Of a DNA stretch of 64,000 bases, positions 7,984 to 52,388 are shown piece by piece. This stretch comes from a virus (taxonomy: Duplodnaviria; Caudoviricetes). Both the position numbers and the translations under genes were made by a program. The stretch's first letter is position 1, and every line of letters begins with the position of its first letter. The stretch spans positions 64,001 through 128,000 of IMG/VR virus record IMGVR_UViG_3300049573_000247. One strand, written 5' to 3'. The notes beneath the pieces are model-generated. The model was not told where the DNA came from. It ran no database searches and saw only the letters and a list, made by a program, of their open reading frames with translations.

Positions 7984-8229
7984 CTACTTGCTGGTGATGC
8001 CGTACTCGGCGATCTCCTCGGGACGCAGGCCCGCGAGCCACGCGTCGCACTCGGCCTCGAACGCGTTCTGCTCGAACGGAATCGTGGCGTGGCCGACGCC
8101 GTCAGTGGAGGTCCAGACGTTGTTGGTGGCGATGGCGTACTCGCCGCCGTTCCACACGTCGATGTACTCGCCGCCCTCCCACGTGAACGTCACGCCCCGA
8201 CACGAGTACGACAGTTCCTCGTCTCCCAT
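7984..8229 (-). CDS. Hypothetical protein
   Basis: GAGG RBS, acidic 81 aa. Confidence 0.65.
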   Translation of the reverse strand: MGDEELSYSCRGVTFTWEGGEYIDVWNGGEYAIATNNVWTSTDGVGHATIPFEQNAFEAECDAWLAGLRPEEIAEYGITSK

Positions 8230-8240
8230 ATGCGCGCCTC

Positions 8241-8735
8241 CTACTCGTCGTCGTCGTTGTCGTTGTCGGCGCTGGCGAACATTCCGTATGCGATCTCCCC
8301 GATCGCATCGGGAACGCTGGAATGCGCGACCGCCTCACTCAGGCGGCGCACCTGCTCGTCGTCCAGTTCCCGACCTGTCCACGCCTCCAGCTGGCTGCGG
8401 GTGACCGCGAGCGTGACCCGGCCGTCCTCGCAGTAGGACTCCACGGCCGCGAGGATCGCCGCCGCTTCCGCACGGCCCTCCCATGACCCGGTCCCGTCCC
8501 AGATGAAGAAGCTATCCAGCTCCTCGGGCACCGCGTGAGCCGCGATCTCCTGCCTGACCTCCCACCCGTGCAGGACCGCCCGCAACAGAGCGGTCTTCCC
8601 GAACGGCTCGGCGAGCACACCCGACCGGTGCGCCTCGTTGATGATCGACAGGCCCCACCCGTTGGCGAACTGGTGGATCTCGTGAGCGCCTTCGTCATCG
8701 ACCCACGTGTCGACTGGTTTGGACTTCACGCCCAT
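8241..8735 (-). CDS. Hypothetical protein
   Basis: AAGGAG RBS before MGVKSKP. Confidence 0.7.
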   Translation of the reverse strand: MGVKSKPVDTWVDDEGAHEIHQFANGWGLSIINEAHRSGVLAEPFGKTALLRAVLHGWEVRQEIAAHAVPEELDSFFIWDGTGSWEGRAEAAAILAAVESYCEDGRVTLAVTRSQLEAWTGRELDDEQVRRLSEAVAHSSVPDAIGEIAYGMFASADNDNDDDE

Positions 8736-8815
8736 GCGTTGTCTCCTTTCGCTATAGGTGGATGCAGCGCGCCACCACACCCGAAGATGTGGTAACCGCT
8801 GGAACGACCTATCGC

Positions 8816-9133
8816 CTACGACCCGGAGCCGCCTTCACCGAGGACCCCCCGGCGGATCGCCGCGCACATCGCGCGCACCCGCTCGCGCTCGACCGGTTCA
8901 CGACTGCCGTTCGCGATCACCCAGCAGTCCAGCTCATGGCAGACCCGACGCCACGTGTCGCGCGTCGCGATCAGTACCGCTTCCCCCTCGCCCAAGTAGT
9001 CGCAGCAGTCGCCGTCCCGGCGAACGGCCACCATCGTGTCCGACCACTGGCCCAGACGCCACAACTCGTTGCCCGACACCGCAACCCGTGCGATGTGCTC
9101 AGGCCACGCCGACTCGTCCTCGATCACTCTCAC
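8816..9133 (-). CDS. Hypothetical protein
   Basis: GGAGGG RBS. Confidence 0.6.
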   Translation of the reverse strand: MRVIEDESAWPEHIARVAVSGNELWRLGQWSDTMVAVRRDGDCCDYLGEGEAVLIATRDTWRRVCHELDCWVIANGSREPVERERVRAMCAAIRRGVLGEGGSGS

Positions 9134-33037: not shown

Positions 33038-34789
33038 ATGACGCTCGACGAACTCATCGAGGCGCTCGCCGGTCTCGATGCCGAGGAGCGGCTCGCGCGA
33101 ATCGAGCAGCTCGTCGGCGAAGTCTCTGAAGACGACCTGGCCACCATCCGCGACGCCGCCATCGAAGCCGCGCAGGCCTACATCGACGAAGTCCCCAGCG
33201 ACGAGGCGTCCATCGCCCGCGCTGAGGCGCTGACGGTGATCCTCGACGCGATCGACCGGCGCACTGGCGACGCGGAGACCGAGACCGAAGCCACCGAAGC
33301 CGAGGAAGCCGACCTCGAAGCCACTGCTGCCCGTGCGGCTTCGGCTGAAGAGGTGGCCGAGCCCGCCCGCGAAGGCGAACTCGTCGCCGCTGATGGAGCT
33401 CCGCAGACCCAGAAGGCGAGTAATCAGATGCCGATCCCGCTGGCCCAGGCCGCCTCCGTCGCTCCGACGCAGGCGAGCGCAGCCGATCGCACCGACCGTG
33501 TGAAGCACACCGTCGTGGCCGCAGGCGACCTTCCCGACTATCGCGGGGGCACCGAGCTGCCGGACACCAAGGCCATCGCCGCCGCCGTCCAGGCCGGTAT
33601 GACCGTCGTCTCCCGGTCGCAGGCCCCGGGCGTGCGACAGGGCCTGTGCTCCATCAAGCGCGAGGCGCCCGATCACCTCAACTACACCGGTGCCTCGGAC
33701 TGGCTCAAAGTCGACGAGGTCACCAACCAGAAGAACCTCCCGGGGAAGTCGCTCGTCGCCGCTGGCGGATGGTGCGCCCCTTCCGAGGTGCTTTATGACG
33801 TTTGTCCCATTCCGGTGTCGCGTGACGGCATGGTCGACCTGCCGACCATCACCGCCACGCGCGGCGGTGTCAAGTACTCGCGTCGGCCCGACTTCGCCCC
33901 GTTCTGGTCCCTCGTGGGCTTTGAACAGACGGAAACGGACGCTATCGCTGGAGTTGAGAAGCCTTGCTTCGAAATTCCGTGTCCTGATGATTTGTCCGAA
34001 TGCCGGATGGACATCGAGGGCATCTGCCTCGTGCAGCCGCTGCTCACCGAGCGCGGTTGGCCAGAGAAGGTCGAGGAGTTCGTCGAGTACGCGATGCTCG
34101 CGCACGCCCACCGCATCAACGCCCGGCGCATCGAGCGCATGGTCGACATGGCCACCTGGGCCATCACCGTCCCGGGCCCGACCCGCAGCCCCGCTGACAA
34201 CACACTGCCCTCCACGGGCATTACCGTCGACGACCACGGCCCGGGCGCATTCGAGTCGCTCCTGAGCGTCCTCGAACTGCAGGTCGAGTTCTTCCGCTAC
34301 TCCATGCGCCTTTCCCGCAGCGCGCTGCTGGAAGGCATGGCGCCGTACTGGCTGCGCGGCCTGCTCCGCGCTGACATCTCGAAGAAGCTCGGGATCGACA
34401 ACCGCTGGGGCATCGCCACCGACGAGATCCTCGACCGGTGGTTCGCCGACCGTGGTGTCCGAATTCAGTGGGTTTATGACTGGCAGGACAGTATGTCCGA
34501 GCAGGACCCCGCTGCGTTCGGCGGCACGCCGCCCACCGCATGGCCTGACGAGGTCTCGATCCTCCTGTGGGAGCCGGGCACCTACTTCGCGCTCCAGCAG
34601 GACGTCATCAACCTCACCGGGGTGTACGACCGCATCGACCTGCAGCGCAACGTCTACACGCGCCTTTTCACCGAAGAGGGATTCGCGGTGTGCGCCCGTT
34701 GCGGTCGCAGCATGCTCATCACCATCCCACTGTGCCCGAACGGCCTGTCCGGCTCTCAGGAGCTGACCGTCTGCTCGACGACCGCGTAA
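33038..34789 (+). CDS. Major capsid protein (with N-terminal scaffold-like region)
   Basis: SLVAAGGWCAPSE..YD, DLPTI...RGG motifs; acidic coiled-coil N-terminus. Confidence 0.9.
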   Translation: MTLDELIEALAGLDAEERLARIEQLVGEVSEDDLATIRDAAIEAAQAYIDEVPSDEASIARAEALTVILDAIDRRTGDAETETEATEAEEADLEATAARAASAEEVAEPAREGELVAADGAPQTQKASNQMPIPLAQAASVAPTQASAADRTDRVKHTVVAAGDLPDYRGGTELPDTKAIAAAVQAGMTVVSRSQAPGVRQGLCSIKREAPDHLNYTGASDWLKVDEVTNQKNLPGKSLVAAGGWCAPSEVLYDVCPIPVSRDGMVDLPTITATRGGVKYSRRPDFAPFWSLVGFEQTETDAIAGVEKPCFEIPCPDDLSECRMDIEGICLVQPLLTERGWPEKVEEFVEYAMLAHAHRINARRIERMVDMATWAITVPGPTRSPADNTLPSTGITVDDHGPGAFESLLSVLELQVEFFRYSMRLSRSALLEGMAPYWLRGLLRADISKKLGIDNRWGIATDEILDRWFADRGVRIQWVYDWQDSMSEQDPAAFGGTPPTAWPDEVSILLWEPGTYFALQQDVINLTGVYDRIDLQRNVYTRLFTEEGFAVCARCGRSMLITIPLCPNGLSGSQELTVCSTTA

Positions 34790-34804: not shown

Positions 34805-36232
34805 ATGCTCAGGTTCCGAGTCGATCCGCCAACCGTGCAGCCAGTGCCGCACGGGCTGCTCGACGTGGCCGAGGTCGTCACCCGTGACGACCCGCACTGG
34901 CGCACGGGCATCGAATACGACAGCTACGCCTGCACGCAGGCGAAACTGTGGGGGCGCTGGTGTACCGCCATCGGTACGCCAGCGACCCTCCCGGACGCGC
35001 GGACCATCGCGATCGCACTGACGGGGCAACTGACAGCGGGCACCTATTCGATGTTGGGGGCCGCCGGGGACAACGACGGTCCACGGCAGCTGCTGTTCAC
35101 CTACTACGACGAGGGCGTCCCCACCGAAACGGCCTACGTGACTGGCACCGCGCCGGTCACCGTCGCATCGGATGACGAGCCGCTCAACGGGCACTTGGTG
35201 ATCACCGACGTGCTCACCGGGCTGCACGTGGACTGGAACATCGTCCAAGACGCCACTACCGGGGAGATCACCCACCCCGGTGAAGAGGCGATCCTGTGGC
35301 AGGTGCCCCAGCCCGCGATCCCCGAGGGCTGCGAGTCGATCACCACCACCATCACCGCCCAGGACGCCACGCCCGCCGAAGGAGTGGCCTTCGCCATCAC
35401 CTCGGCGGGTGTCGTCACCAGCGAGCGAGCCGTCACCATCGCCGGACACCGCGTCGTACTCGACGCCGGTGACACCGAGGGCGCACTGGTCATCGCCAGC
35501 GGCGTCGGCGAAGGCGTATGGCCGATCTCCGTCCACGACATCGACTCCGGTTCGTTCGTCTCCGGGTGGATCTACATCGACGACACGCTTGCCGGGACCG
35601 CTGTGCTCCTGCAAGCAACCTGCCCCGTCAAAGAAATCCGGTCGGCGCCGTGGACGACGCTGTTCGCCCCGGCCTGGACCGTCTATGCCGAGGTCCAGTG
35701 CCAATCGATGGCGTTCGACGACGCGGCGGCCTCGGCCTCCGACGTCTTCGCGCTGGCTGAGGCGAAGGTCGTGGAGGCCTCCTGGTGGGACCTTGCTTTC
35801 GACCGGGCCCGCACGATTGGCACTGGGCTCTCGATTCCGGCCGCTATCGCCGAGTTGGAGCACTACCTCGCTGTCAACTACAACGGGCTCGGGATTATCC
35901 ACGTGCCTGTCTACATGGCGGCGTGGCTGGGCAGCGTGTGGGGGACGTTCACGCGCGGCCAGAGCCTTACCGAGCACGGTGTCCTGCACACCTTGCGCGG
36001 CACGCCCGTCGTCGTCGGCTCGGGCTACCCGCGTCAAGGCGACCCCGCCGGAGCAGGCGTCGCCATCATGGCCACCGGCGCTGTGCGCCTCTACCGGTCC
36101 GGCGTCGAGGTCATCTCGACGATCGACCGCCGCACCAACCTCCGATCCGCTGTCGCCGAGCGGACCTATGCCGCCGCTGACGACTGCGTGCAACCGGCAG
36201 TCGCTTTCGTGGATGTGGAGGCCACCACGTGA
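34805..36232 (+). CDS. Head-associated/minor capsid protein with inserted beta-rich domains
   Basis: Follows MCP; P.P.GLL..A N-terminus and AERTY C-terminus; Thr-rich beta insert. Confidence 0.6.
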   Translation: MLRFRVDPPTVQPVPHGLLDVAEVVTRDDPHWRTGIEYDSYACTQAKLWGRWCTAIGTPATLPDARTIAIALTGQLTAGTYSMLGAAGDNDGPRQLLFTYYDEGVPTETAYVTGTAPVTVASDDEPLNGHLVITDVLTGLHVDWNIVQDATTGEITHPGEEAILWQVPQPAIPEGCESITTTITAQDATPAEGVAFAITSAGVVTSERAVTIAGHRVVLDAGDTEGALVIASGVGEGVWPISVHDIDSGSFVSGWIYIDDTLAGTAVLLQATCPVKEIRSAPWTTLFAPAWTVYAEVQCQSMAFDDAAASASDVFALAEAKVVEASWWDLAFDRARTIGTGLSIPAAIAELEHYLAVNYNGLGIIHVPVYMAAWLGSVWGTFTRGQSLTEHGVLHTLRGTPVVVGSGYPRQGDPAGAGVAIMATGAVRLYRSGVEVISTIDRRTNLRSAVAERTYAAADDCVQPAVAFVDVEATT

Positions 36233-36295: not shown

Positions 36296-37825
36296 ATGGC
36301 TGAGACTTCTACCGTCCGAGGCAGGATGGCGCGGTTCACGCGCCTCGACGAGCTGGGACGCCCGCTGTACGGCATGGGCAACCAGGCCGTCACCAAAGGC
36401 ATCATTTCGGTCACCTATACCCCCAACGTCACCGAGGGTGAAGCCACCTCGGTCACCAACTTCGCCGGTGAGCAGTGCATCTCGGCGCCAGCGCCGTGCG
36501 CGACCATCGACAACTGGACCGTGGCTGTCGAATTCTGCGCAGTCGACCCATGTGTCGTGTTGATGATCTACCCATCCTGGATTCCGATTTACGACGATTT
36601 CGGGTCGATCAAGGGTTTCCAGATCGTCGGCGGTTTGAGCTGCGACGTTGGCTTCGCCCTGGAGATCTGGGGCCAGATCGGTTCGGCCGGGTCCTCGATC
36701 CAGTGCGGCCCAGGCGCCGTCTCGGGCTCCACCTACTGGCTCGCACCCCGCCTGGTCGGCGCCGCCCCAGGCGAAATCACGATCAGTAACGAGGCCACGT
36801 CGTTCACGTTCAACGGCACCACGACCTCGCCGGTCGGCTGGCGTCGCGGTCCCTACTTGGTCGACATCGTCGACGGCGTTCCGTCGGTCCTGCGCGACCC
36901 GGTCGACAGCGCTGCACAGCTGGTCGAGTTCACCACGCAGGTGCGTCCGCCCGAGCCCACCAACGGATGCGTGGAGCTGCCACGCCCGGTCCCGGAGGAG
37001 GCCAGCGTCATCATCGACCGCGTCCCCACGGACGCGACCGGCATGTGCGCGCGTCTCATCATCGACAACCACGGATTCGGGCCCGTCACAGTCAACTGGG
37101 GCGACGGCACCGACCCCGAGACCAGCGGCGACTGCTCGACCATCACTCACTGCTACACGACGCCAGGCACCTACACGGTGTGCGTCGCTGACCAGCAGAC
37201 CCCGGCGATCTCGACCTGCCGCGAGATCGTCGTGCCGATGCCATCCGATCAGCCGACCATGACCGTGGCAGTCGATCCGACCGACGACATGTGCGTCATC
37301 GCGACCATCGACATGCCACCGCAGTCGGATGGGCGCGTGGAGATCACCTGGGGCGACGACACCGCTGCTTCGACCGTCGAAGTCACGCCCGGAACACCGG
37401 TCGAGGTGTCGCACTGCTACTCGACGCCGGGCGTCTACACCATCCGGGCCGTCCGCGTGGAGCAGCCGGACTACTACGCCACCGCAACCGTCGTGGTGCC
37501 GGTCATTCCGAACCCAATGGTGTCCGCCGCCGTCGACGGCCAGATGGTCACGCTGACCGTCGACAACAACGGCAACGGTCTCACCACTGTGGAGTGGGGC
37601 GACGGCGCCACGACCTCCGGCCCGAACACGGACGGAGGAACCGTCCAGCACACCTACGCGGCAGACGGCGTCTATTCGATCACGGTCACCTCGGTGTCCA
37701 ACCCACTCTCGACCACCACGGTGCAGGTCACCGTCGGCGCCGCTCCAGGCCTGCAGGCCGGAGTCGACGCCGATGGAGGCGATGTGTCGGGCATGACGGT
37801 CGACGTCACCTGGAACAACGCTTAG
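36296..37825 (+). CDS. Major tail protein with 3 PKD/Ig domains and a terminal half-domain
   Basis: RG..AR.TRLD..G.P tube N-terminus, FCAVDP; three W-G-D...H.Y...G.Y repeats. Confidence 0.85.
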   Translation: MAETSTVRGRMARFTRLDELGRPLYGMGNQAVTKGIISVTYTPNVTEGEATSVTNFAGEQCISAPAPCATIDNWTVAVEFCAVDPCVVLMIYPSWIPIYDDFGSIKGFQIVGGLSCDVGFALEIWGQIGSAGSSIQCGPGAVSGSTYWLAPRLVGAAPGEITISNEATSFTFNGTTTSPVGWRRGPYLVDIVDGVPSVLRDPVDSAAQLVEFTTQVRPPEPTNGCVELPRPVPEEASVIIDRVPTDATGMCARLIIDNHGFGPVTVNWGDGTDPETSGDCSTITHCYTTPGTYTVCVADQQTPAISTCREIVVPMPSDQPTMTVAVDPTDDMCVIATIDMPPQSDGRVEITWGDDTAASTVEVTPGTPVEVSHCYSTPGVYTIRAVRVEQPDYYATATVVVPVIPNPMVSAAVDGQMVTLTVDNNGNGLTTVEWGDGATTSGPNTDGGTVQHTYAADGVYSITVTSVSNPLSTTTVQVTVGAAPGLQAGVDADGGDVSGMTVDVTWNNA

Positions 37826-37834
37826 GAGGCTGCC

Positions 37835-39136
37835 ATGACCGTCCAGATTCAATGGGACGCTGACGCACCGCTGACGGGGCAGCCCGATGCGGGCACGGCG
37901 ACGAAGGTCTACACGACCGCTGGCCCTGGGACGGTGACGATCACCGACGAGGCCATCGGCGGTGACAGCGTCACTCTCGAATACACGGTGCCGCTCGACC
38001 TCACCACGGTCGTAGCGACGCCTGATGCTGTCGACTCGGCTGGGAACCTCGCGGCGCGCACGATCTCCGTCGCGGGCCAGGGCTTCCCGGCCAACACGGC
38101 GGGCACTGTCGCCATCGCCACCGGTGTTCCTGGTGCGTTCGGGACGACCCTGGTGTCCACCTCAGCCGCCACCAACGCCTCGGGGATCTTCACCGATGTG
38201 GACGTGGTGGTCCCCAGCGACTCTGCCGCTGGTGATTACCACCTGGAAGTCAGCTTCGGTGCCATCGTGGACCTGTCGGAAGCGATCACGCTGACCAACA
38301 CCGAGCTGACCGCACCGACTGGGCTCGCGTCGCCATCGCAGACACCAACCACCGTCACGCTTACGTGGACGGCAGTCCCCGAGGCGGAAACGTACGTGGT
38401 GCGTCGTTCGCCTGCAGGCGTTGGCACGTGGACGGAGCGGCCTCCTGTTGCGGCGCTCACGGATACCGTCACCGGCCTGACGGCGTCGACGAACTACGAC
38501 TTCCAGGTCAAAGCGCAGGCGGTCGGTTCGACCGACTCTCCGTGGTCGACGACGTTCACGCAGGCCACGCCAGCGCAGCCGGTCCTGGATGCCCCGTTGA
38601 ACCCGGCGACCGGAACGCCGACGACAACGGAGATCCCGTTCTCGTGGGATGCGGTCACCGACGCCGAGACGTACACCGTGGAGTACCGGATCAGTCCGGC
38701 TGGGGCGTGGACGTCCATCTCCGGCATTGCCACGACCAGTACCACCGTTACCGGACTCGACCCGAACACCACATACGACCTGCACGTCAAGGCCGTTGCC
38801 AGCGGGTTCACCGATTCTCCGTTCTCGGCGACGGTCACCGAATCGACCGACGCGCTCGGGACGCTGACGACTCCGGCCACGCCGACGTCGTCGGGGCAGA
38901 CGGCGACCACGGTCACCGTCAACTGGACGTCGGTCGCCAACGCCGAGCAGTACCTCGTTCGCTGGTCGCCCGCCGGTGCGGGCACCTGGACCGAACGGCC
39001 AGCGGTCGCAACGCTGACAGACACGGTCACCGGTCTGGCGGCATCGACCAGCTACGACTTCCAAGTCAAGGCCATGGCCGCCGGATGGGTTGACAGTTCC
39101 TTCTCCGCATCGCTGACCCAGTCCACTACCGCTTAA
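37835..39136 (+). CDS. Virion decoration protein: half-PKD, Ig and 3 FN3 domains
   Basis: AP.GL....T.TTV.L.W..V..A..Y...TVTGL...T.YDFQVKA repeats. Confidence 0.85.
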   Translation: MTVQIQWDADAPLTGQPDAGTATKVYTTAGPGTVTITDEAIGGDSVTLEYTVPLDLTTVVATPDAVDSAGNLAARTISVAGQGFPANTAGTVAIATGVPGAFGTTLVSTSAATNASGIFTDVDVVVPSDSAAGDYHLEVSFGAIVDLSEAITLTNTELTAPTGLASPSQTPTTVTLTWTAVPEAETYVVRRSPAGVGTWTERPPVAALTDTVTGLTASTNYDFQVKAQAVGSTDSPWSTTFTQATPAQPVLDAPLNPATGTPTTTEIPFSWDAVTDAETYTVEYRISPAGAWTSISGIATTSTTVTGLDPNTTYDLHVKAVASGFTDSPFSATVTESTDALGTLTTPATPTSSGQTATTVTVNWTSVANAEQYLVRWSPAGAGTWTERPAVATLTDTVTGLAASTSYDFQVKAMAAGWVDSSFSASLTQSTTA

Positions 39137-39151: not shown

Positions 39152-41107
39152 GTGCCTATCGTGTTGCAGCCTGTCGACCAAGTCGCGCACAACCAACTGG
39201 CGCAGCGGCTCGCCTGCTGGGCCCAAACGCCTGACGGCCTGACCGACATGGCGCTCATCTACCAGTCGTGTTGCGTCTCGCCGACCGGTCAGACCATCGG
39301 CCGATGGGTCGTACCCGAAGATCTCTGCGACGTCTACGGACCGTTCAACTTCACCGCCAACGAAGGCGACGTCATCCCGTGCCCGCCCACGGGATCAGCG
39401 GAGTACGTCAACTACTACATCTACGACGACGACGTCCACGACATCGACCCCAACACGTGCATCGAGGTCGTCCTCGCCGCGCCGACCAGTCTCGCGTCGC
39501 CAACCCAAGGCCCGGACACCGTTGACCTCACCTGGAATGCGGTCGCTGGAGCTGACACGTACGTCGTGCGGTGGTCGATAGCCGGTGCAGGCGAATGGAC
39601 CGAATCTGCGCCCACGGCATCGACGAGCATCGAGATCGGTGGACTCACCGACGAGACCTCCTACGACTTCCAGGTGCAGGCACTGGCAGTAGGAGCGGTG
39701 GATTCTCCATGGTCAGCGACGTTCACGCAAGAGACCACGTCGCTTGGCGAACTCGTAGCGCCCACCGGTGTCGCAGCACCATCGTCTACCGGCACCACTA
39801 TCGATGTCACCTGGAACGAGGTCGAGAACGCGACCTCGTACACCGTGGAGTGGTCACCGACTGGCGCGGGCACGTGGACGCCCGCGACCAGCGCTGACAC
39901 GACGTACACGATCACGGGACTGGACCTCGGTACCTCATATGACATCCGGGTCAAGGCGACCGCTCCCGGCTGGACTGATTCGCCCTATTCGACGCCGATC
40001 GTCGGCTCGACCGAAGAGCAGCTCGCGACCGTGACTGGGCTCGCGTCGCCTTCGCAGACCGGTACCACGGTGGTGCTCACCTGGGATGACTTGCCCGAGG
40101 CCACCACCTACGTGGTGCGTCATTCGCCTGCAGGTGCGGGCACGTGGACGGAATTGGCGCCCGTGGGCACCGATGGCGCGACAGTCACCGGGCTGAGCGC
40201 GGGAACCAGCTATGACTTCCAGGTCAAAGCACAGGCCGAGGACTTCGTCGACTCTGAGTGGACAGCGTCGCTCACGCAGTCGACTGCTGCCGCGCTGGGC
40301 ACGCCCGTGGTCACCAGTCCAGCTCAGACCGATACCAGCGTGAGCCTGTCGTGGGCCGCGATTCCGAACGCCACCTCCTACACCGTGCAGTCGGCGCCGA
40401 CCGCTGGCGGCCAGTGGGAAGCTCTCGTGCCCGACCCGACCGGGACGACCGCAACGGTGACGGGCTTGACGGCTGGCACCTCTTACAAGTTCCGCGTCAT
40501 CGCGCACGCGAGCGGATGGGCCGACTCCGCTTGGTCAGCCGAGTTGACTCAGGCCACCGAAGCGGCGCTGCTCGCCCCGGCGAACCTGGCGGCGGGTACT
40601 CCGACGACCACGACGGTGCCCCTGTCATGGGACGCAGCCGTGAACGCCGACACCTACACCGTGGCCTGGTCGCCTGCCGGAGCGGGAGTCTGGACCGAGA
40701 TCCCGATGATCGCGGGCACGAGCACGACCGTTACCGGCTTGACCGTTGGCACGCTCTACGACTTCCGGATCAAGTCCGTGGCGACCGGATTCGCCGATTC
40801 CGGATGGTCGGCCACGATCACCGACAGCACCGCCATCGACGCTCCCACCGGACTCGCTGCTGGGACGGTCACCTCGACCAGTGTCGCCCTGAGCTGGAAC
40901 GCCGTCACTAACGCCGATTCCTATCGCGTCCGGTGGTCACCTGCGGGGGCAGGAACGTGGACGCAGCTGCCGACGACGACCAACCTCACCGACACGGTCA
41001 CGGGGTTGACGCCCAGCACTTCATATGACTTCCAGGTGAAGGCGATCAGCAACACGCTGACCGACTCGGCCTGGTCCGCCACGCTCACGCAGGCCACTAC
41101 CGCCTAG
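39152..41107 (+). CDS. Cys-rich N-domain plus 6 FN3 domains
   Basis: Six FN3 repeats counted. Confidence 0.88.
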   Translation: MPIVLQPVDQVAHNQLAQRLACWAQTPDGLTDMALIYQSCCVSPTGQTIGRWVVPEDLCDVYGPFNFTANEGDVIPCPPTGSAEYVNYYIYDDDVHDIDPNTCIEVVLAAPTSLASPTQGPDTVDLTWNAVAGADTYVVRWSIAGAGEWTESAPTASTSIEIGGLTDETSYDFQVQALAVGAVDSPWSATFTQETTSLGELVAPTGVAAPSSTGTTIDVTWNEVENATSYTVEWSPTGAGTWTPATSADTTYTITGLDLGTSYDIRVKATAPGWTDSPYSTPIVGSTEEQLATVTGLASPSQTGTTVVLTWDDLPEATTYVVRHSPAGAGTWTELAPVGTDGATVTGLSAGTSYDFQVKAQAEDFVDSEWTASLTQSTAAALGTPVVTSPAQTDTSVSLSWAAIPNATSYTVQSAPTAGGQWEALVPDPTGTTATVTGLTAGTSYKFRVIAHASGWADSAWSAELTQATEAALLAPANLAAGTPTTTTVPLSWDAAVNADTYTVAWSPAGAGVWTEIPMIAGTSTTVTGLTVGTLYDFRIKSVATGFADSGWSATITDSTAIDAPTGLAAGTVTSTSVALSWNAVTNADSYRVRWSPAGAGTWTQLPTTTNLTDTVTGLTPSTSYDFQVKAISNTLTDSAWSATLTQATTA

Positions 41108-41121
41108 ACAGGAGAAACGCC

Positions 41122-42009
41122 ATGCCTATCGTGCTACAGCCGATCGACCAGACGGCCAAAGCGGAACTCGCGCAGCAGCTCGCCTGCTGGGCGCGTGCCG
41201 CCAACGGCCTGACCGACGTCGCGGTCCAGTACGGCACCTGCTGTGTCTCGCCGACCGGCGAAACGCTGGGTCGTTGGACTATTCCCAACGACCTGTGCAC
41301 CACGTACGGGCCGTTGCCATTCACGGGCAACAACGGCGAGGAAATCGTTTGCCCGCCTGTCGGTTCCGCCGAGTACGTGTCGTACTACATCTACGACGAA
41401 GACGTCGACCCGATCGACGTGGACACCTGCACGCCGTTGGTCGCGCTCGCCGCGCCGACCGCGCTCGCGGCCGGAACGCCGACCGACACCACCATTCCGC
41501 TGACGTGGACCGGGTCGGCCAACGCCAACGCCTACCTGGTGTCGTACTCGTCGGACTCGGGCACCACGTGGCTGGAGGTGCAGGCGAGCGGATCGCCATT
41601 CACCCTGACCGGGTTGACGCCCGAGACGGACTACACCATCCGCATCCGTGCGCTCGACACCACGAATTCGTTCGCGAAGTCCCCGTGGACGACCACGGTC
41701 ACCGCGACCACCGAATCGTCGCTGCCTGAGCTTGCCGTCCCAGCGAACCTCGCGACCGGCACCATGACTGCGACGACGGCGCCGCTCACGTGGGACGCGG
41801 TCACGAACGCGGTGGACTACCACGTCCAGTACAAGGCGACAGCGTCGCCGACGTGGCTGGACTGGACGCCTGACCCGGCCACGCCGTCGACCACGGTCAC
41901 CGGCCTGGTCACCGCCACCTCGTACGACTTCCGCGTGCGGGCCAACGCCGACAACATCTCGTTCTCCGACTCCGACTACAGCGCTGTGGTCACTGACACC
42001 ACCGCGTAA
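41122..42009 (+). CDS. Cys-rich N-domain plus 2 FN3 domains (paralog of 39152)
   Basis: N-terminal ~105 aa aligns with 39152 (LAQ.LACWA, CCVSPTG, CPP.GSAEYV.YYIYD). Confidence 0.88.
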   Translation: MPIVLQPIDQTAKAELAQQLACWARAANGLTDVAVQYGTCCVSPTGETLGRWTIPNDLCTTYGPLPFTGNNGEEIVCPPVGSAEYVSYYIYDEDVDPIDVDTCTPLVALAAPTALAAGTPTDTTIPLTWTGSANANAYLVSYSSDSGTTWLEVQASGSPFTLTGLTPETDYTIRIRALDTTNSFAKSPWTTTVTATTESSLPELAVPANLATGTMTATTAPLTWDAVTNAVDYHVQYKATASPTWLDWTPDPATPSTTVTGLVTATSYDFRVRANADNISFSDSDYSAVVTDTTA

Positions 42010-42060: not shown

Positions 42061-42092
42061 GATTCCACACTTACATCCCTTTGGAGGGTTCC

Positions 42093-42845
42093 ATGCCCAG
42101 CATCAAGTGGTATCCGGACCGGACAGTCCCACGCAAGGGCAAAGCGCGCGTTCTCGACGTTCCGCAAGCGTATGTGTTGGCGCTCGGCGACGGCACCACG
42201 TTCCCCAAAGACCTCGATGACGTCTACCCACACACTTACGCGGCGGCAGGCCCGTACGCACTGTCGGTCGTTCGCATCGGCGAAACCGAACCGGCAGCGA
42301 CGCTGCTGCTGAACGTCCTCGACGCCGTCGTACCGAACGTGTCCATCACGTCGCCGCCGAACTCCCAGACCATCCGGGTGACGTTCCTCGACCCGGAGAT
42401 GCCAGTAGTCGGCCGGTACACGGTCGACTGGACGCCAACGGAGAGCCAGGACGTGCTCGCCGAACCCGACAAGTATGTCGAGCGGCTGTTCACGCCGGGC
42501 ACCTATCCGATCCGCGTGACCGACCACTGGTCGGCACTATCGGTGGTGCAGGACGTCGTGGTGGCACCGGTGACTGCCGATCCGGGTTTTAGCCTCGCCG
42601 AGGACACCTCCGATCCCGGCCGCATGACGGTGCAGCTGGAAGTCGTGACGGTGGCTTCGGCGCAGCCCGGAGACACACTGCTCGTCGACTGGGGTGACGG
42701 CAACACTGACACCATCGACGCCACGGTCAGCACGATGATTTCGCACGCGTACGCCTACGACGACGAGTACATGGTCGAGTTGTCGTACACCGACGCCCCC
42801 GAGATGAGCACCGTCGAGTTCGTTTGGCTGCCGTTCGACGCCTAG
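42093..42845 (+). CDS. PKD-domain protein (about 3 repeats)
   Basis: GDG..HTY...G.Y and VDWGDG...HAY motifs; GGAGG RBS. Confidence 0.8.
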   Translation: MPSIKWYPDRTVPRKGKARVLDVPQAYVLALGDGTTFPKDLDDVYPHTYAAAGPYALSVVRIGETEPAATLLLNVLDAVVPNVSITSPPNSQTIRVTFLDPEMPVVGRYTVDWTPTESQDVLAEPDKYVERLFTPGTYPIRVTDHWSALSVVQDVVVAPVTADPGFSLAEDTSDPGRMTVQLEVVTVASAQPGDTLLVDWGDGNTDTIDATVSTMISHAYAYDDEYMVELSYTDAPEMSTVEFVWLPFDA

Positions 42846-42889: not shown

Positions 42890-42892
42890 TCG

Positions 42893-42966
42893 TCGCGGAG
42901 GCGGGATTTGAACCCGCGACCTTCAGGTTATGAGCCTGTTGAGCTACCGAACTGCTCTACTCCGCA
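42893..42966 (-). tRNA. tRNA-Met(CAU), initiator-like
   Basis: TGCGGAGTAGAGCAGTTCGGTAGCTC-AACAGGCTCATAACCTGA-AGGTCGCGGGTTCAAATCCCGCCTCCGCGA. Confidence 0.9.
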
Positions 42967-45214: not shown

Positions 45215-46054
45215 ATGCCAGTCATCAACCCACAGGCTCAGGTCCCTGAGAGTGAGGCGGGCGCCCTGTATCCGTGCGAGCCGTGGCCGATCGACCCGGT
45301 GTGCTGTCCTGGGTGGCCTGCAGACCAAGCGGACTGGGATGAAGCGCACTTCGAGGCGCAGTGGCTCGCTACCGTCGAGCTGTGGCGTGCCGTGGCCGGA
45401 GTGATCGGTCTGTGCCGCACCACCGAGCTGCCTTGCCTTGACCGATGCGTGGCCCGCCCATTGGAATCGGCGTGGATGTACCCCTACCGAGATGTCAACG
45501 GCGCCTGGTTCAACTCCAAATGCGGATGCCGCGACACCTGCTCGTGCACGCAGCTGTGCACCGTCACACTCCAGGGACCGGTCTACCAGATCGAATCAGT
45601 TACCGTCGATGGCGTCACGCTGGAGTCGGATCAGTGGAAGCTCCTGACCGGCAACCGGCTCGCCCGCTGTGGTGGCTGCTGGCCCAAATGCCAGGATTTC
45701 TGCGCCGAGGACGGCCTGGTCGTCACTTACCTGCGGGGCACGCCACCGGGCCTCGACGCTATCCGAGCCGCCAGCATTCTCGCTTGCCGCAGGCTCCAGG
45801 AATGCCCTCCAGGCGGTGGCGACTGCGGAACGTTGCCCTCTGGTGTCACTAGCATCAGTCGTGAAGGATTGAATATGCAGCTGGATTCGACTATCGGCGC
45901 GGGCGAAGACGGCGTCATTCATTTCACCGGCATCGCGCGGGTTGATCGATGGATCGCTTCGATCAACCCGTATGGCGTCACCTCCAACCCGTCGGTGTGG
46001 TCGCCTGACGTCGACACGCCGCAGGTCTGGCGTAGTGGATCGGTGAACCCATGA
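45215..46054 (+). CDS. Head-to-tail adaptor
   Basis: PV..I..VTVDG, WP.CQD, LP.GVTSISREG, TGI..VD.WI...NP motifs. Confidence 0.8.
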   Translation: MPVINPQAQVPESEAGALYPCEPWPIDPVCCPGWPADQADWDEAHFEAQWLATVELWRAVAGVIGLCRTTELPCLDRCVARPLESAWMYPYRDVNGAWFNSKCGCRDTCSCTQLCTVTLQGPVYQIESVTVDGVTLESDQWKLLTGNRLARCGGCWPKCQDFCAEDGLVVTYLRGTPPGLDAIRAASILACRRLQECPPGGGDCGTLPSGVTSISREGLNMQLDSTIGAGEDGVIHFTGIARVDRWIASINPYGVTSNPSVWSPDVDTPQVWRSGSVNP

Positions 46055-46275
46055 TCCCCTTGATCGTCAGCCTGGTCTATGTCGTGGCCATGTTGTTCAC
46101 CGCTCGCATGCTCTACCGCAACGCCGTCACCAGCGGATTCGATGTCACTACCTCCTCGCGCCTGCTCATGGGCGTCGGCTTCGCATTGATTTACGCGCTG
46201 GCGTGGCCGCTGCTCCTGCTGGGTTTGGGGGCGGTGCGCTTCATCGTGCATCGGGCCAAGGGGGACATCGCGTGA
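46051..46275 (+). CDS. Small two-TM membrane protein
   Basis: Two hydrophobic helices; overlaps both neighbours. Confidence 0.7.
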   Translation: MIPLIVSLVYVVAMLFTARMLYRNAVTSGFDVTTSSRLLMGVGFALIYALAWPLLLLGLGAVRFIVHRAKGDIA

Positions 46276-46937
46276 ACGTCCTGGATTACCTCGAAAACGA
46301 GCTGCTGTCGTGCCTGTGCTCGATGCTGCGCACCGAGGGACGTCCAGCCTGCGAATGTCACCACTTTGGGGGCGATGTGCCGCCAGTCGGGGACCGCTGC
46401 CAGGCCAACACCGCCGGAGAGAACGGGCAGGTGTGGATCAGGCGCGTCTCGCAGGCGATCGAGTCCGATCCTGAGGAGATCACGTTCGGTGGCTTCGCAT
46501 GCGACTCGTCGTGGCAGTCGCAGATCGAACTGGGCATCTATCGGTGTATCACGGCGATCCCCGACGACAACGGGAACGCCCCGTCCCCGGCATCCTACGA
46601 CGCCGACCGAGACCTGCTCGCCGCCGACCGGGCGACGCTGGCACGTGTGCTGTGCTGCTGGCCGCTGGCCGGTGAGGCTCCGGCTCCGGTGGCTTTTGAT
46701 CTGCCCATTGCCGTTATTGCGGCGCAGATTCTGCCGTTGGGGCCCACGGGGGGATGCGCCGGGTCGGTGCTGACGCTGGTCGTCAACGCCGCACTCACCG
46801 TCGAAGAGCCAGTGGCGCAGCTGGTTGCCGGTGTCGATGCCGATCCAGGCGATCCAACGGGCCAGACGGCTGTGGTGACATGGCGAAACGAACTTGCGGA
46901 GGAGGTTTTCGTTTCCCGTCCAGCCGGAGGTGGCTGA
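46272..46937 (+). CDS. Tail terminator-like protein
   Basis: IELGIYRC and PLGP.GGCAG motifs; position. Confidence 0.65.
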   Translation: MNVLDYLENELLSCLCSMLRTEGRPACECHHFGGDVPPVGDRCQANTAGENGQVWIRRVSQAIESDPEEITFGGFACDSSWQSQIELGIYRCITAIPDDNGNAPSPASYDADRDLLAADRATLARVLCCWPLAGEAPAPVAFDLPIAVIAAQILPLGPTGGCAGSVLTLVVNAALTVEEPVAQLVAGVDADPGDPTGQTAVVTWRNELAEEVFVSRPAGGG

Positions 46938-48605: not shown

Positions 48606-51600
48606 ATGGCAGTAATCGCGACTGCGGAAGTTCGTGTTGTCGCCGACACCAGCCGCTTCCTCTCCAACCTCCGTCGACAACTGCGTGGTGCTTTCAGCCA
48701 GATCGGCGCTCAGGCGGCGCAGCAATTCACCAACGCGTTCAACCAAAACGTCGGTAACCAGTTCACCGGCGGCCTCCGTCGCGCCGGACAGCAGGGCGGC
48801 GTCTCTTTCACCGACGGCCTGCGTACCGCGCTGCGCCGGGGCCTGCGCGGCATTCAGATCCTCGGCTTCCTTAACCTCGCCATCGCCCAAGGCCTCCAAG
48901 GCGCTGCACAGCTCGTTGCCCGAGGACTGCGTGTCGCCTTCGTCGAAGGCGGCCGGGGCATCGTCACCGCCTTCCAGAACGCCGTGGTCAACCCACTGCG
49001 CACCCTCATCGGCAACCTCTTCGGCAGGGCACTCAACGCCACACTCTCACGCCTTGCGCCCCTCTTCGCAGCTGCCGGAGCCGCAGCCCGCAACGCATTC
49101 TTCAGCCAGATGGCCGGTATCGGTGCGGCCATCACCAACTTCATCAACAGCCCCGTAGGACAAGCCCTCGGCCGACTCCCAGCGCTCTTCCGGGCCGCCG
49201 GTGACCTGGCCCGTGAAGCGTTCTTCCAGCGCATGGCAGGCATCGGCGCCGGAATCATGAACATCATCGAAGGGCCCATCGGCCGCGCCGCTGCGCGCAT
49301 CAGCCAGCTCTTCGGCGCTGCCGGTGTCCTCGCTCGCGAATCCTTCTTCCGCAGCATGGCCGGTATCGGCGCGGGCATCATGAACTTCATCGAGAGCCCC
49401 ATCGGCCGGGCCCTCGGCAGGCTGCCAGCGCTCTTCCGGGCTGCTGGCGATCTGGCCCGTGAAGCGTTCTTCCAGCGCATGGCAGGCATCGGCGCGCTGA
49501 TCACCAACGTCCTCGAAAGCCCCATCGGCCGGGCCCTCGGCAGGCTGCCTGCGCTGTTCCAAGCGTTCGGCACCCGCGCCAGTAACGCCTTCGGCCAAGG
49601 GCTGGCACGACTGCGACTTGCCGGAACCACGGCGATGAACAACATCACGGCCGCCATCAACCGTGCTGGACCTCGCATCCAGGCCGCTGCTACCAGGGCA
49701 TTCGGGCCCGCCGCCCAAAGTGTCCAGCGCGCTTTCAACCTCGTCCCGTGGGCGCGCATCGGTCAGGGCATCGGCCGACTCTTCGGTCGGGGCCTGGGCG
49801 ACGGCGCTGAAGAGGAAACTCAGCAGCGCGGCCAGAGCATTGGCGCGCGTTTCGGCGCCGCTATGACGCGGGGCCTGACCACCGGGCTGCGAGGTCTGGG
49901 CACTGCTTTGGCTTCCATCTCGCTTCGTCCACTACAAGGCCTCGCGGGGATCTTGAGCAATGCCACGAGCGAGATGATCTCGATGGCGGCACAGGCCCTG
50001 GTCGTTGTCGGCCTTCTGGAGTCTCTCTCGGGCGCCCTATTCGCGCTCCCAGCCGCCCTGAACGTCGTCGGCGCCGGTTTCGCCACTGTCGCCCTCGGCT
50101 TCAGTGGATTCTCCACTGCCATCAACACCGCGTTCGAAGACCTGTCGAATGTCGAGGCGGCCATCGCCGACCTCGCCCCGGCCGCTCAAGCAGTTGTCCG
50201 CGAGATCGTCGCCCTCGGCCCGGCTCTGACCAACCTGCGGCTGGACACACAGCAAGCACTGTTCTCCCAGCTCGCAGGCACCTTTACCGCCGTCGCCAAC
50301 AACCTGCTGCCTGCTCTGAACGAAGGCCTCACCCGCTCCGGTGCTGCCTTCGGCAGCATCGTCGCCGGGATCGGCGAGTTCCTCGCCCAGGCCGCCACAG
50401 CCGATACCGTCACGGCGACCTTCGACACCCTTGTCGCGATCTTCGACGCACTCGCCGTGTCGACGGTGCCCTTCCTGGAGGCGATGCGCCTCCTGGCCGA
50501 CACGTTCCTGCCCCGGATCGCGGAAGCGGCGGGCCCCATTGCCGGGCTCGGTGCTCAGTTCCAGGCCTGGACCGAGCAGGTCGTCGCCTCGGGCGACGCC
50601 ATGGCAGCGTTCGATTTCGCCATCCAGGTATTCCAGCAGCTTGCGGGGATAGTCGGCGATCTCGCCGGGATCTTCCAGGCGACGTTCTCCGCCGCCGAGC
50701 TCGCCGGAGTCGACGCGCTCGGCGCGATCGGTGAAGCGCTCGAAGTCGTGCGCACTACCTTCGAATCGTTCGAAGGACAGGCCGCCCTAGCGAACGTCTT
50801 CACTGCCATCGGCGACACCGTCAACGCCCTTGCGCCGGTCTTCGCCACCCTGATTACCCAGCTTGGCCTCGTCTTCCCGATCATCGGGCAGCTTGCCGAG
50901 GCTCTCGGCCCTAGCCTGTCGGTCGTCCTTGAAGGGCTGGGCCAGGCTCTCCTCGCACTCGGGCCCGGTGTCATCGCCGTTTTCGACGGCATCGCCGCCG
51001 CCGCCGAGGCCATCGCGCCCGCCCTGCAGCCCTTGGGTGAGGCCATCGGAGCAGTACTAACTGCAATCGCACCGATACTCCCTGTAATCGGGGAGCTGAT
51101 CGGCATCGTCATCACACTCGGTGCACAGATCCTGTCCGTGCTCGCCAGCGCGATCATGCCGATCGTGCAGGCGCTCGCGGGCGCCCTCGCACCAGTGCTG
51201 CCCCTTATCGCCGACCTGTTCACCAGGCTCGTCGAGGCGCTTGCGCCCGTGATCGAGGCCCTCGGCGCTGGGCTGGCAAGCGTTATCGCGACGCTCCTGC
51301 CGCCGATCCTGCAGCTCGTCGTCGCCCTGGCCGATGCCTTGATGCCCGTGATCGAGGCGCTTTTGCCGGTTTTGACACCAATTATTGAGATTTTCTTCCA
51401 ATTGGTGAATGTGATCGGTTCACTGCTCGTACCTGTCATTTCGCTCCTTTTGCCCATCATTGAGGCGCTTAGTCCGGTTTTGCAGCTCGTCGGGCTCGTC
51501 CTCGCCCCCCAGCTGGAGCTGTTCTCGGCGATCCTGCAGCCGATCACCACGCTGATCACCCTGATCGCGAGCCTGCTCACGCCCGTGATCGAGTTCCTCG

Positions 51601-52388
51601 CCGAGATCATCGGCACGATCATCGGCATCGCGCTCGTCCCGCTGACCGCTGCCTTCGAATTCCTGGCAGATGTACTGGCCGACCACGTGATTCCATGGTT
51701 CGAGGCGAGCGCCCTGGTACTGAGGATGTTCTGGGAGAACGCGATCGAGCCGCTGATCCAGTGGATCGGCCGACTGAGCAGCGGCGTCAACGAGCGATTC
51801 GGCACTATCCGTGACGCAGTGAGCACTCTCTGGAATCTCTGGAAGAACCGCTTCGATCTCATGGAGAGCCTGATTGAGACCGTGGTCGACGTGGTCTCCG
51901 ACGCTGCGAGCAGCATCGCTGACTTCTTCAGCGACATGGGCGACACAATCAGTGACGTCTTTGACAACATGCTCGACGGCCTGCGCAGTGCCCGCGACAC
52001 CATTTCTGGCATCGTGGACTCGATCGTCGGTTTCGTCCAAGACGCCATCAACACCGCCCAGAACCTCGGCAATATCGATCTCAGCCCGTTCGCCAACGGC
52101 GGGATCGTGAACGGCCCCACTGCCGCACTCATCGGCGAGGCGGGCCGCGAGGTCGTCATCCCGCTCACCCGTCCGCAGCGTGCCGCTGAACTCGCCCAGC
52201 AGTCCGGCCTCATCGACTTGCTCGCTTCGCAGGGCGCCTTGGGCGCCGCCCAGGCCACCACCTCCGGACCACCAGTCGAAATGCATGTCCATTCGGGCAT
52301 TGCCGACCCCGAGCAGATCGCCCGGCGCGCCATCCGGATCATCGAGCGGCGCATGGGCGGTCGCGGATTGGAGCGACTGGGCACATGA
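48606..52388 (+). CDS. Tape measure protein
   Basis: 1260 aa, Ala/Leu-rich amphipathic repeats; C-terminal FANGGIV.GPT.ALIGEAG.EVVIPL. Confidence 0.93.
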   Translation: MAVIATAEVRVVADTSRFLSNLRRQLRGAFSQIGAQAAQQFTNAFNQNVGNQFTGGLRRAGQQGGVSFTDGLRTALRRGLRGIQILGFLNLAIAQGLQGAAQLVARGLRVAFVEGGRGIVTAFQNAVVNPLRTLIGNLFGRALNATLSRLAPLFAAAGAAARNAFFSQMAGIGAAITNFINSPVGQALGRLPALFRAAGDLAREAFFQRMAGIGAGIMNIIEGPIGRAAARISQLFGAAGVLARESFFRSMAGIGAGIMNFIESPIGRALGRLPALFRAAGDLAREAFFQRMAGIGALITNVLESPIGRALGRLPALFQAFGTRASNAFGQGLARLRLAGTTAMNNITAAINRAGPRIQAAATRAFGPAAQSVQRAFNLVPWARIGQGIGRLFGRGLGDGAEEETQQRGQSIGARFGAAMTRGLTTGLRGLGTALASISLRPLQGLAGILSNATSEMISMAAQALVVVGLLESLSGALFALPAALNVVGAGFATVALGFSGFSTAINTAFEDLSNVEAAIADLAPAAQAVVREIVALGPALTNLRLDTQQALFSQLAGTFTAVANNLLPALNEGLTRSGAAFGSIVAGIGEFLAQAATADTVTATFDTLVAIFDALAVSTVPFLEAMRLLADTFLPRIAEAAGPIAGLGAQFQAWTEQVVASGDAMAAFDFAIQVFQQLAGIVGDLAGIFQATFSAAELAGVDALGAIGEALEVVRTTFESFEGQAALANVFTAIGDTVNALAPVFATLITQLGLVFPIIGQLAEALGPSLSVVLEGLGQALLALGPGVIAVFDGIAAAAEAIAPALQPLGEAIGAVLTAIAPILPVIGELIGIVITLGAQILSVLASAIMPIVQALAGALAPVLPLIADLFTRLVEALAPVIEALGAGLASVIATLLPPILQLVVALADALMPVIEALLPVLTPIIEIFFQLVNVIGSLLVPVISLLLPIIEALSPVLQLVGLVLAPQLELFSAILQPITTLITLIASLLTPVIEFLAEIIGTIIGIALVPLTAAFEFLADVLADHVIPWFEASALVLRMFWENAIEPLIQWIGRLSSGVNERFGTIRDAVSTLWNLWKNRFDLMESLIETVVDVVSDAASSIADFFSDMGDTISDVFDNMLDGLRSARDTISGIVDSIVGFVQDAINTAQNLGNIDLSPFANGGIVNGPTAALIGEAGREVVIPLTRPQRAAELAQQSGLIDLLASQGALGAAQATTSGPPVEMHVHSGIADPEQIARRAIRIIERRMGGRGLERLGT
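49098..49560 (+). repeat. 123 bp (41 aa) repeat x4 within tape measure
   Basis: FF..MAGIGA units start at 49098, 49221, 49344 and 49467. Confidence 0.9.

Follow-up and report, generated by a model that had tools for sequence, protein, structure and literature searches.

In the crystal structure of the Tuc2009 tripod, a C-terminal 25-residue hairpin of BppU (residues 296-321) completes the sheet of BppA domain 2, and the resulting composite resembles an immunoglobulin (Ig) domain of titin (PMC4742702). Ig-type domains also decorate phage tail tubes, where they are either covalent parts of the tube protein, as in lambda gpV and T5 pb6, or are added by programmed frameshift, as in SPP1 gp17.1* (PMC8718954). 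Here we describe a PKD-like Ig domain that is cut between two adjacent genes of an uncultured actinophage of 141 kb. The genes lie in a stretch of 64,000 nucleotides (nt), hereafter the window, which corresponds to bases 64001-128000 of IMG/VR record IMGVR_UViG_3300049573_000247 (141,154 bases, 65% G+C, completeness estimate 99%). The upstream gene encodes the major tail protein, and the downstream gene encodes a protein with three fibronectin type III (FN3) domains, which we call the arm. We consider it probable that the arm clips onto the tail by completing the split domain in trans, a joint for which that of the BppU hairpin with BppA domain 2 is the closest solved precedent.

The upstream product is a siphovirus major tail protein, since the phrog_792 'major tail protein' profile covers residues 1-367, across the tube core (E 8.2e-55). 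By tblastn the protein matched 793 phage records, and among the matches listed almost all were annotated as major tail protein; the tube core (residues 3-316) is ~31-36% identical to major tail proteins of Arthrobacter, Microbacterium, Gordonia and Mycobacterium phages. In the one cultured case examined, Arthrobacter phage SilentRX, the tail gene is 897 nt long, and therefore too short for a PKD extension, and the next gene is annotated as a peptidase. Pfam identified PKD_4 at residues 265-297 of the window's protein (41.7 bits; cut-off 27) and PKD at residues 412-480 (48.7 bits; cut-off 23.5), and the third PKD repeat scanned alone gave E 1.1e-6. Three whole repeats align with one another and with intact domains of relatives (alignment A3), and the C-terminal piece of the protein, which we call donor tag 1, aligns to their first and second strands. 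The product of the next gene begins at strand C of the same domain and runs to the domain end, and we call this portion the acceptor (coordinates of all features are given in Table 1). The initial annotation had described three whole PKD repeats followed by only two strands of a fourth, and a next gene that opens with the missing remainder, in frame 9 nt after the TAG; Pfam and A3 agree with the first description, and the sequence and A3 with the second.

The translation read through the junction (P0001) served as the query in phmmer, Pfam and AlphaFold2 (AF2) tests of the composite domain. Tag and acceptor are collinear with 15 intact domains, with no rearrangement (A3). In phmmer the composite matched intact relatives at E 2e-8 to 1.6e-12, including an intact natural domain of a distant relative in a match that spans the cut (query residues 6-88; E 1.6e-12), as well as repeat 1 of the same tail protein (query residues 16-88; E 1.6e-4). 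The family profile built on A3 also matched collagenase PKD domains (E ~1e-3). Homology to bona fide PKD repeats thus extends across the whole domain, and we term the composite PKD-like because it is homologous to the neighbouring repeats, the name being given without a Pfam PKD call.

Using the alignment of the 15 intact domains, AF2 folded the read-through chain into a seven-strand sandwich (predicted local distance difference test, pLDDT, 90.1; predicted template-modelling score, pTM, 0.79). The tag provides the strands at residues 8-13 and 22-28 and the acceptor those at 36-41, 47-51, 53-59, 64-72 and 79-86, and the loop joining strands 2 and 3 contains the cut. The top PDB matches of this model in Foldseek were the PKD domains 4l9d, 4tn9 and 1l0q (E ~6e-3; template-modelling score, TM, ~0.5), with FN3 domains at similar scores. 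When tag and acceptor were modelled as two chains, the score was 0.39 (runs of 0.42, 0.39 and 0.39) versus 0.01 for the best control; the runs agreed in at least 81% of contacts, with a partner pLDDT of at least 65. Among 80 solved complexes 58 reached the mark used for two-chain predictions, and among 110 mismatched pairs 2 did; those that reached it with a score of 0.60 or less were 7 of the 80 solved complexes and both of the mismatches that passed. We take the two-chain result as weak support for pairing. The completed Ig fold that the initial annotation proposed to look for is therefore predicted for the single chain and weakly supported for two.

The joint predicted from A3 and the AF2 strand map would be of the Tuc2009 kind, in which a short hairpin of the carrier supplies the missing strands of its partner. 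In Tuc2009 a hairpin of ~25 residues at the end of a virion protein completes an incomplete beta-sandwich of ~57 residues in a separately encoded accessory protein; here the tag has 24 residues and the acceptor ~55, a match in architecture and size between a solved joint and a predicted one. The Tuc2009 joint lies in the baseplate, at one site, with the incomplete domain at the C-terminus of the partner, whereas here the tag is carried by the tail-tube protein and by a terminator-fold protein (described below), the incomplete domain is N-terminal and encoded directly downstream, and the fold is PKD-like. Further differences are that the tag here can be an optional cassette and can be present in tandem. 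As in lambda gpV, T5 pb6 and SPP1 gp17.1*, Ig-type domains would project from the tail tube, but the FN3 arm comes from a gene of its own that has its own start codon. The tail protein's three whole PKD repeats are themselves the covalent kind of tail-tube decoration.

The initial annotation had likened the locus to pilus donor strands. In chaperone-usher pili (Fim, Pap), one G strand is donated from an N-terminal extension, a periplasmic chaperone and an usher are needed, and polymers are built. The likeness holds insofar as the incomplete Ig-like fold of one polypeptide would be completed by another in trans, and fails for the single donor strand and for the chaperone and usher. Here two strands (A and B) would come from a C-terminal or internal hairpin, as in Tuc2009, and would yield a defined decoration, and this places the locus outside chaperone-usher donor-strand complementation and leaves the pilus comparison a loose one. 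No match to chaperone or usher families was found among the neighbouring genes scanned, no full search having been made. In the literature searched we found nothing on strand or fold completion on phage tail tubes, and a search by term of the mycobacteriophage Douge structure paper returned no fold completion.

The initial annotation had also offered amber readthrough as an alternative, and a broader form of this idea is that some rounds of translation yield a fusion of tail protein and FN3 protein, by readthrough or, in relatives, by frameshifting. The in-frame ATG of the window speaks for such recoding, as do the in-frame junctions of two relatives (L026 and L007) and the frameshift-added FN3 established for the tail-tube protein of SPP1 (PMC8718954). 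We read 10 junctions in the window's clade, in which measured tail-protein identity to the window's is 65-95%. All 10 keep a TAG, a purine-rich ribosome site and an ATG, with gaps from stop to ATG of 9, 9, 10, 10, 10, 11, 14, 14, 15 and 16 nt; three (the window, L026 and L007) are in frame, as many as chance would give, and one of these three has a TAA directly after the TAG. The distant phage L022 has the same cut with a TGA and a 10-nt gap, while stop and start overlap by 4 nt in the distant phages L020 and L027. Across lineages the stop is TAG, TGA or TAA, and, except at the stop/start overlaps, every junction provides a ribosome site and a start codon for the second gene. As neither the frame relation nor the stop codon is conserved, no recoding appears to be involved. 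The fixed frame, lack of own initiation signals and conserved slip or readthrough site of an SPP1 gp17.1*-type Ig/FN3 extension were not found at these junctions. Whether the TAG is conserved in relatives had been raised by the initial annotation as a check, and all located relatives keep a stop at this position.

We also searched the junction query against 1.84 billion representatives. Three classes of match were recovered: acceptor-only proteins matching from residue 1, donor-only matches at the C-terminus of tail proteins, and intact internal domains. No fusion of tail protein and arm was found among these representatives or in a search limited to longer proteins, apart from a fragment of 143 residues (P0045), a singleton from a soil run with no contig on record, which has a Tyr at the stop position. 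This fragment would favour a fused product; it is altered at four otherwise conserved acceptor positions (Trp7, Gly20, Lys24 and Tyr26) and could be an error-laden contig or a decayed fused copy, and we treat it as unreliable. The tag in the terminator-fold protein, moreover, has no downstream partner with which to be fused. With an unconserved frame, a retained ribosome site and ATG, and no located fused form, we reject fusion by amber readthrough or frameshift, which we regard as highly improbable.

More than 40 homologs of the arm protein all start at the same N-terminal residues, with distal domains that may be FN3 or other Ig-like repeats. Conservation in these proteins is highest in the acceptor, which always lies at the extreme N-terminus and, from its position and conservation, looks like an anchor. 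One residue, K24, is invariant in 44 of 44 acceptors, and Asp residues are invariant in the tag, a hint that an isopeptide bond might lock tag to acceptor once the fold is complete. SpyTag/SpyCatcher, an engineered split CnaB2 domain, forms such a bond; there too one fold is rebuilt from a short peptide and a shortened Ig-like domain, and the tag still functions after grafting into other proteins. In contrast, no isopeptide bond is indicated here: in A3 the invariant Lys falls on the His of the His-x-Tyr motif that is usual in PKD repeats, residues on the adjoining tag strand are not conserved, and no catalytic acid was identified, the model coordinates not having been inspected. To our knowledge, no isopeptide is described in PKD folds. 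A covalent lock is accordingly a very unlikely addition to non-covalent fold completion.

A second copy of the tag is carried by a protein of the tail-terminator fold. A Foldseek search with the AF2 model of this protein (pLDDT 82) gave matches at E 4e-4 to 2e-3 to T5 p142, the Mu terminator, the P74-26 neck and lambda gpU (3fz2, for which the TM by target reached 0.60). The lambda gpU-like fold and a gene order that follows the phrog_783 adaptor identify it as a tail terminator, with phrog_810 as its only sequence family, and the label 'tail-terminator-like' given earlier is thereby supported. The start had been placed at 46203; most likely it is the GTG at 46272, because homologs of ~220 residues begin there. 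Tag 2 is identical to tag 1 at 15 of 23 positions, with a runner-up of 9 of 23 among ~282,000 windows of 23 residues in six frames of the whole 141-kb genome. A tag profile search of the genome found both tags (tag 2 at E 2e-12) and nothing else, and the terminator protein as a query matched the tail-protein tags of four other genomes, so that the motif at 46821 does align in profile comparison, a further check suggested at the outset.

The two tags are identical at 48 of 72 nucleotides and at 14 of 24 third codon positions, which indicates selection on the protein rather than a recent copy and rules out recent gene conversion between them. In 44 aligned terminator homologs, the cassette is a block of ~27 residues between two conserved flanks, present in about half and exactly missing from the others. 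One homolog without it is 85% identical; its longest contig is 43.7 kb, as is that of a homolog of the arm protein. From this pattern of presence and absence the tag is internal, optional and portable. The recurrence of the half-domain noted by the initial annotation thus stands, while its position is not terminal: a conserved tail of ~15 residues follows the cassette. Profile searches of the whole genome gave exactly two orphan tags and one acceptor, and no further copy of either, numbers that fit one arm with two docking sites.

Tags on both of the proteins whose rings stack in one tube are also what would be seen if the hairpin stabilised the tube or neck, by pairing with a neighbouring tube or terminator subunit or, where hairpins are in tandem, with each other, to lace the tail surface. 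AF2 draws the terminator tag as a hairpin (residues 183-190 and 200-207) even without a partner, and tandem tags occur in relatives, both in keeping with such a role. The whole PKD repeats, however, are complete and offer no open edge for two more strands (A3), and about half of the terminator homologs have no tag, so that it is not part of ring contacts. A stabilising role would also leave unexplained an acceptor that lacks exactly these strands and is always encoded immediately downstream. We consider such a role improbable, and favour docking of the arm.

The position of the cut and the number of tags vary among relatives. L020, L023 and L027 have the cut in the tail protein one strand further on, behind the WGDG strand. 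In L020 and L027 an adapter protein of 185 residues is encoded between the tail protein and the arm gene (L020:9447-10004; L027:1947-2504). It opens with the rest of the PKD domain whose front ends the tail protein, continues with one intact copy of the split domain and ends with two orphan tags, after which the arm protein starts at strand C; this layout suggests that the adapter may be a branching connector. The tail proteins of L007, L009 and L022 end in two tandem tags (L007:7525-7620; L009:7525-7620; L022:7830-7987). Separately, L023 has a second split pair in its distal tail genes (L023:7257-8015 and 8025-8987), cut at the B-C loop; the upstream product ends in an A-B-like piece and the downstream product opens with the WGDG strand, its gene starting 9 nt past a TAG.

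Several observations weigh against docking of the arm by fold completion. The evidence for binding of arm to tail is a prediction; the two-chain score lies in the weak band, and halves of one fold may score through their likeness to solved Ig domains. Pfam PKD gave no match on the composite domain even at E 10, and the best Foldseek E-value for the composite was only ~6e-3. Several relatives have tandem tags and one acceptor gene, which a one-to-one picture does not explain. Within genomes, the two tags gave no clean signal of co-variation: terminator and tail-protein tags are identical at 16 of 21 positions in one clade, and values in the window's clade are no different from those across genomes. 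No cultured phage was found to carry the module, as blastn of the two genes and tblastn of the junction domain against 50,697 phage records returned no match. The Tyr-containing fragment P0045 belongs on the same side.

The predicted nature of the binding, the silence of Pfam, the weak two-chain score and the unmatched tandem tags would also suit a fission remnant, in which an ancestral long tail protein was cut and its halves no longer meet, being unstructured leftovers or serving other partners, with the FN3 protein attached elsewhere or not at all. Against this, both halves are conserved at the protein level and keep their fold-defining positions, although tail proteins have diverged to 65% identity and beyond; donor tag 1 is conserved in 10 clade relatives, and the acceptor is the part of the arm protein under the strongest conservation. 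Divergence at third codon positions combined with protein conservation indicates selection. An unrelated protein has gained the tag as a cassette that about half of its family keeps, which a leftover would not be expected to do. Judging from the known topology of Ig-like folds, a lone five-strand acceptor would leave part of its core, and probably much of it, exposed. A fission remnant is therefore unlikely in our judgement, though it is an alternative to be taken seriously.

The reading we favour is that two genes share one PKD-like Ig domain, divided at its B-C loop, with the tail-tube protein holding the A-B beta-hairpin at its C-terminus as donor and the next gene holding strands C to G as acceptor. 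The arm would be translated separately from its own ribosome site and start codon, 9-16 nt past the carrier stop or overlapping it, and the two proteins would join non-covalently through fold completion. We infer from these features that arm and tail bind, that each tube subunit carries one outward-pointing FN3 arm, and that the cassette in the terminator-fold protein recruits the same arm to the ring capping the tube. The arms would probably serve to adhere weakly to surfaces of the host or the environment, a role already proposed for Ig-like and FN3 domains of other phages. Capture of the FN3 protein in trans by a half-domain tag was the central proposal of the initial annotation; three tests that might have told against it (fold prediction, the stop codon in relatives and profile alignment of the second motif) all left it standing, with binding as a prediction.

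A wider proposal, which seems to us evenly balanced, is that hairpin and half-domain (24 and 55 residues) make up a natural and portable tag-and-socket code in a soil actinophage lineage. A cassette in any exposed virion loop would recruit the same arm, adapters with one socket and two tags would multiply docking sites, and gene boundaries would have been placed repeatedly inside PKD domains so that separately made tail proteins snap together. What is new relative to the systems above is where the joint sits (tube and terminator), its PKD-like fold and an N-terminal socket in the product of the very next gene, together with a tag that behaves as a cassette, tandem tags and adapter proteins. 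If docking by fold completion is correct, non-covalent completion of a split fold would be a third route to tail decoration, beside covalent fusion and programmed frameshifting. Tube assembly would be uncoupled from decoration, one arm would serve two carriers, and arms could be exchanged with the tube gene untouched. For annotation, a short orphan piece where a gene ends, or a 'truncated' domain where one starts, is not necessarily an error or a pseudogene. For engineering, a natural tag of 24 residues with a small matching domain, found grafted in an unrelated protein, might be adapted to phage display or protein assembly.

Table 1. Features of the split domain, its carriers and the surrounding structural genes (window coordinates).
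Feature	Position	Strand	Details and basis
Portal	28855		
Major head protein	33038-34789		phrog_777
phrog_779 protein	34805-36232		Role not assigned; between major head and major tail genes
Major tail (tube) protein	36296-37825	+	509 residues: tube core, three whole PKD repeats, C-terminal donor tag; phrog_792, E 8e-55
PKD repeat 1, whole	36998-37246	+	phmmer envelope 235-317, alignment A3, PKD_4 match
PKD repeat 2, whole	37259-37501	+	phmmer envelope, alignment A3
PKD repeat 3, whole	37508-37741	+	Pfam PKD residues 412-480, alignment A3
Donor tag 1	37751-37822	+	24 residues, strands A and B of fourth PKD-like domain; alignment A3, AF2 strands
TAG stop	37823-37825	+	Within B-C loop of split domain
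Shine-Dalgarno AGGAGG	37824-37829	+	Overlaps stop, 5 nt ahead of ATG
Decoration (arm) protein	37835-39136	+	433 residues: acceptor half-domain, one Ig-like domain, three FN3; Pfam fn3 x3
Acceptor half-domain	37835-38002	+	Residues 1-56, strands C to G of split PKD-like domain
Five genes after major tail gene			Products rich in FN3 and PKD domains
PKD protein	42081-42845		
tRNA-Met	42892-42966	-	
Tail fibre	43113		
Head-tail adaptor	45215		phrog_783
Tail-terminator-fold protein	46272-46937	+	221 residues, carries tag 2; AF2, Foldseek, phrog_810
Donor tag 2	46821-46889	+	Internal hairpin cassette near C-terminus; identity to tag 1, tag profile, AF2 hairpin
Two presumed chaperones	47499, 48008		Named by position alone; no family match
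Tape measure	48606-52388		

Some neighbouring genes have features of their own. The phrog_779 protein has 475 residues, and its family profile match is confined to the C-terminal 190. The adjacent genes at 39152-41107 and 41122-42009 share a Cys-rich N-terminal domain of ~100 residues that has no family match and precedes six FN3 repeats in one product and two in the other. The structural block also contains, between the genes for the PKD protein and the tail fibre, the minus-strand tRNA-Met gene. Between the head-tail adaptor and the terminator-fold gene, an open reading frame at 46051-46275 encodes a strongly hydrophobic product of 74 residues with no family match, and its end overlaps the likely GTG start of the terminator-fold protein.

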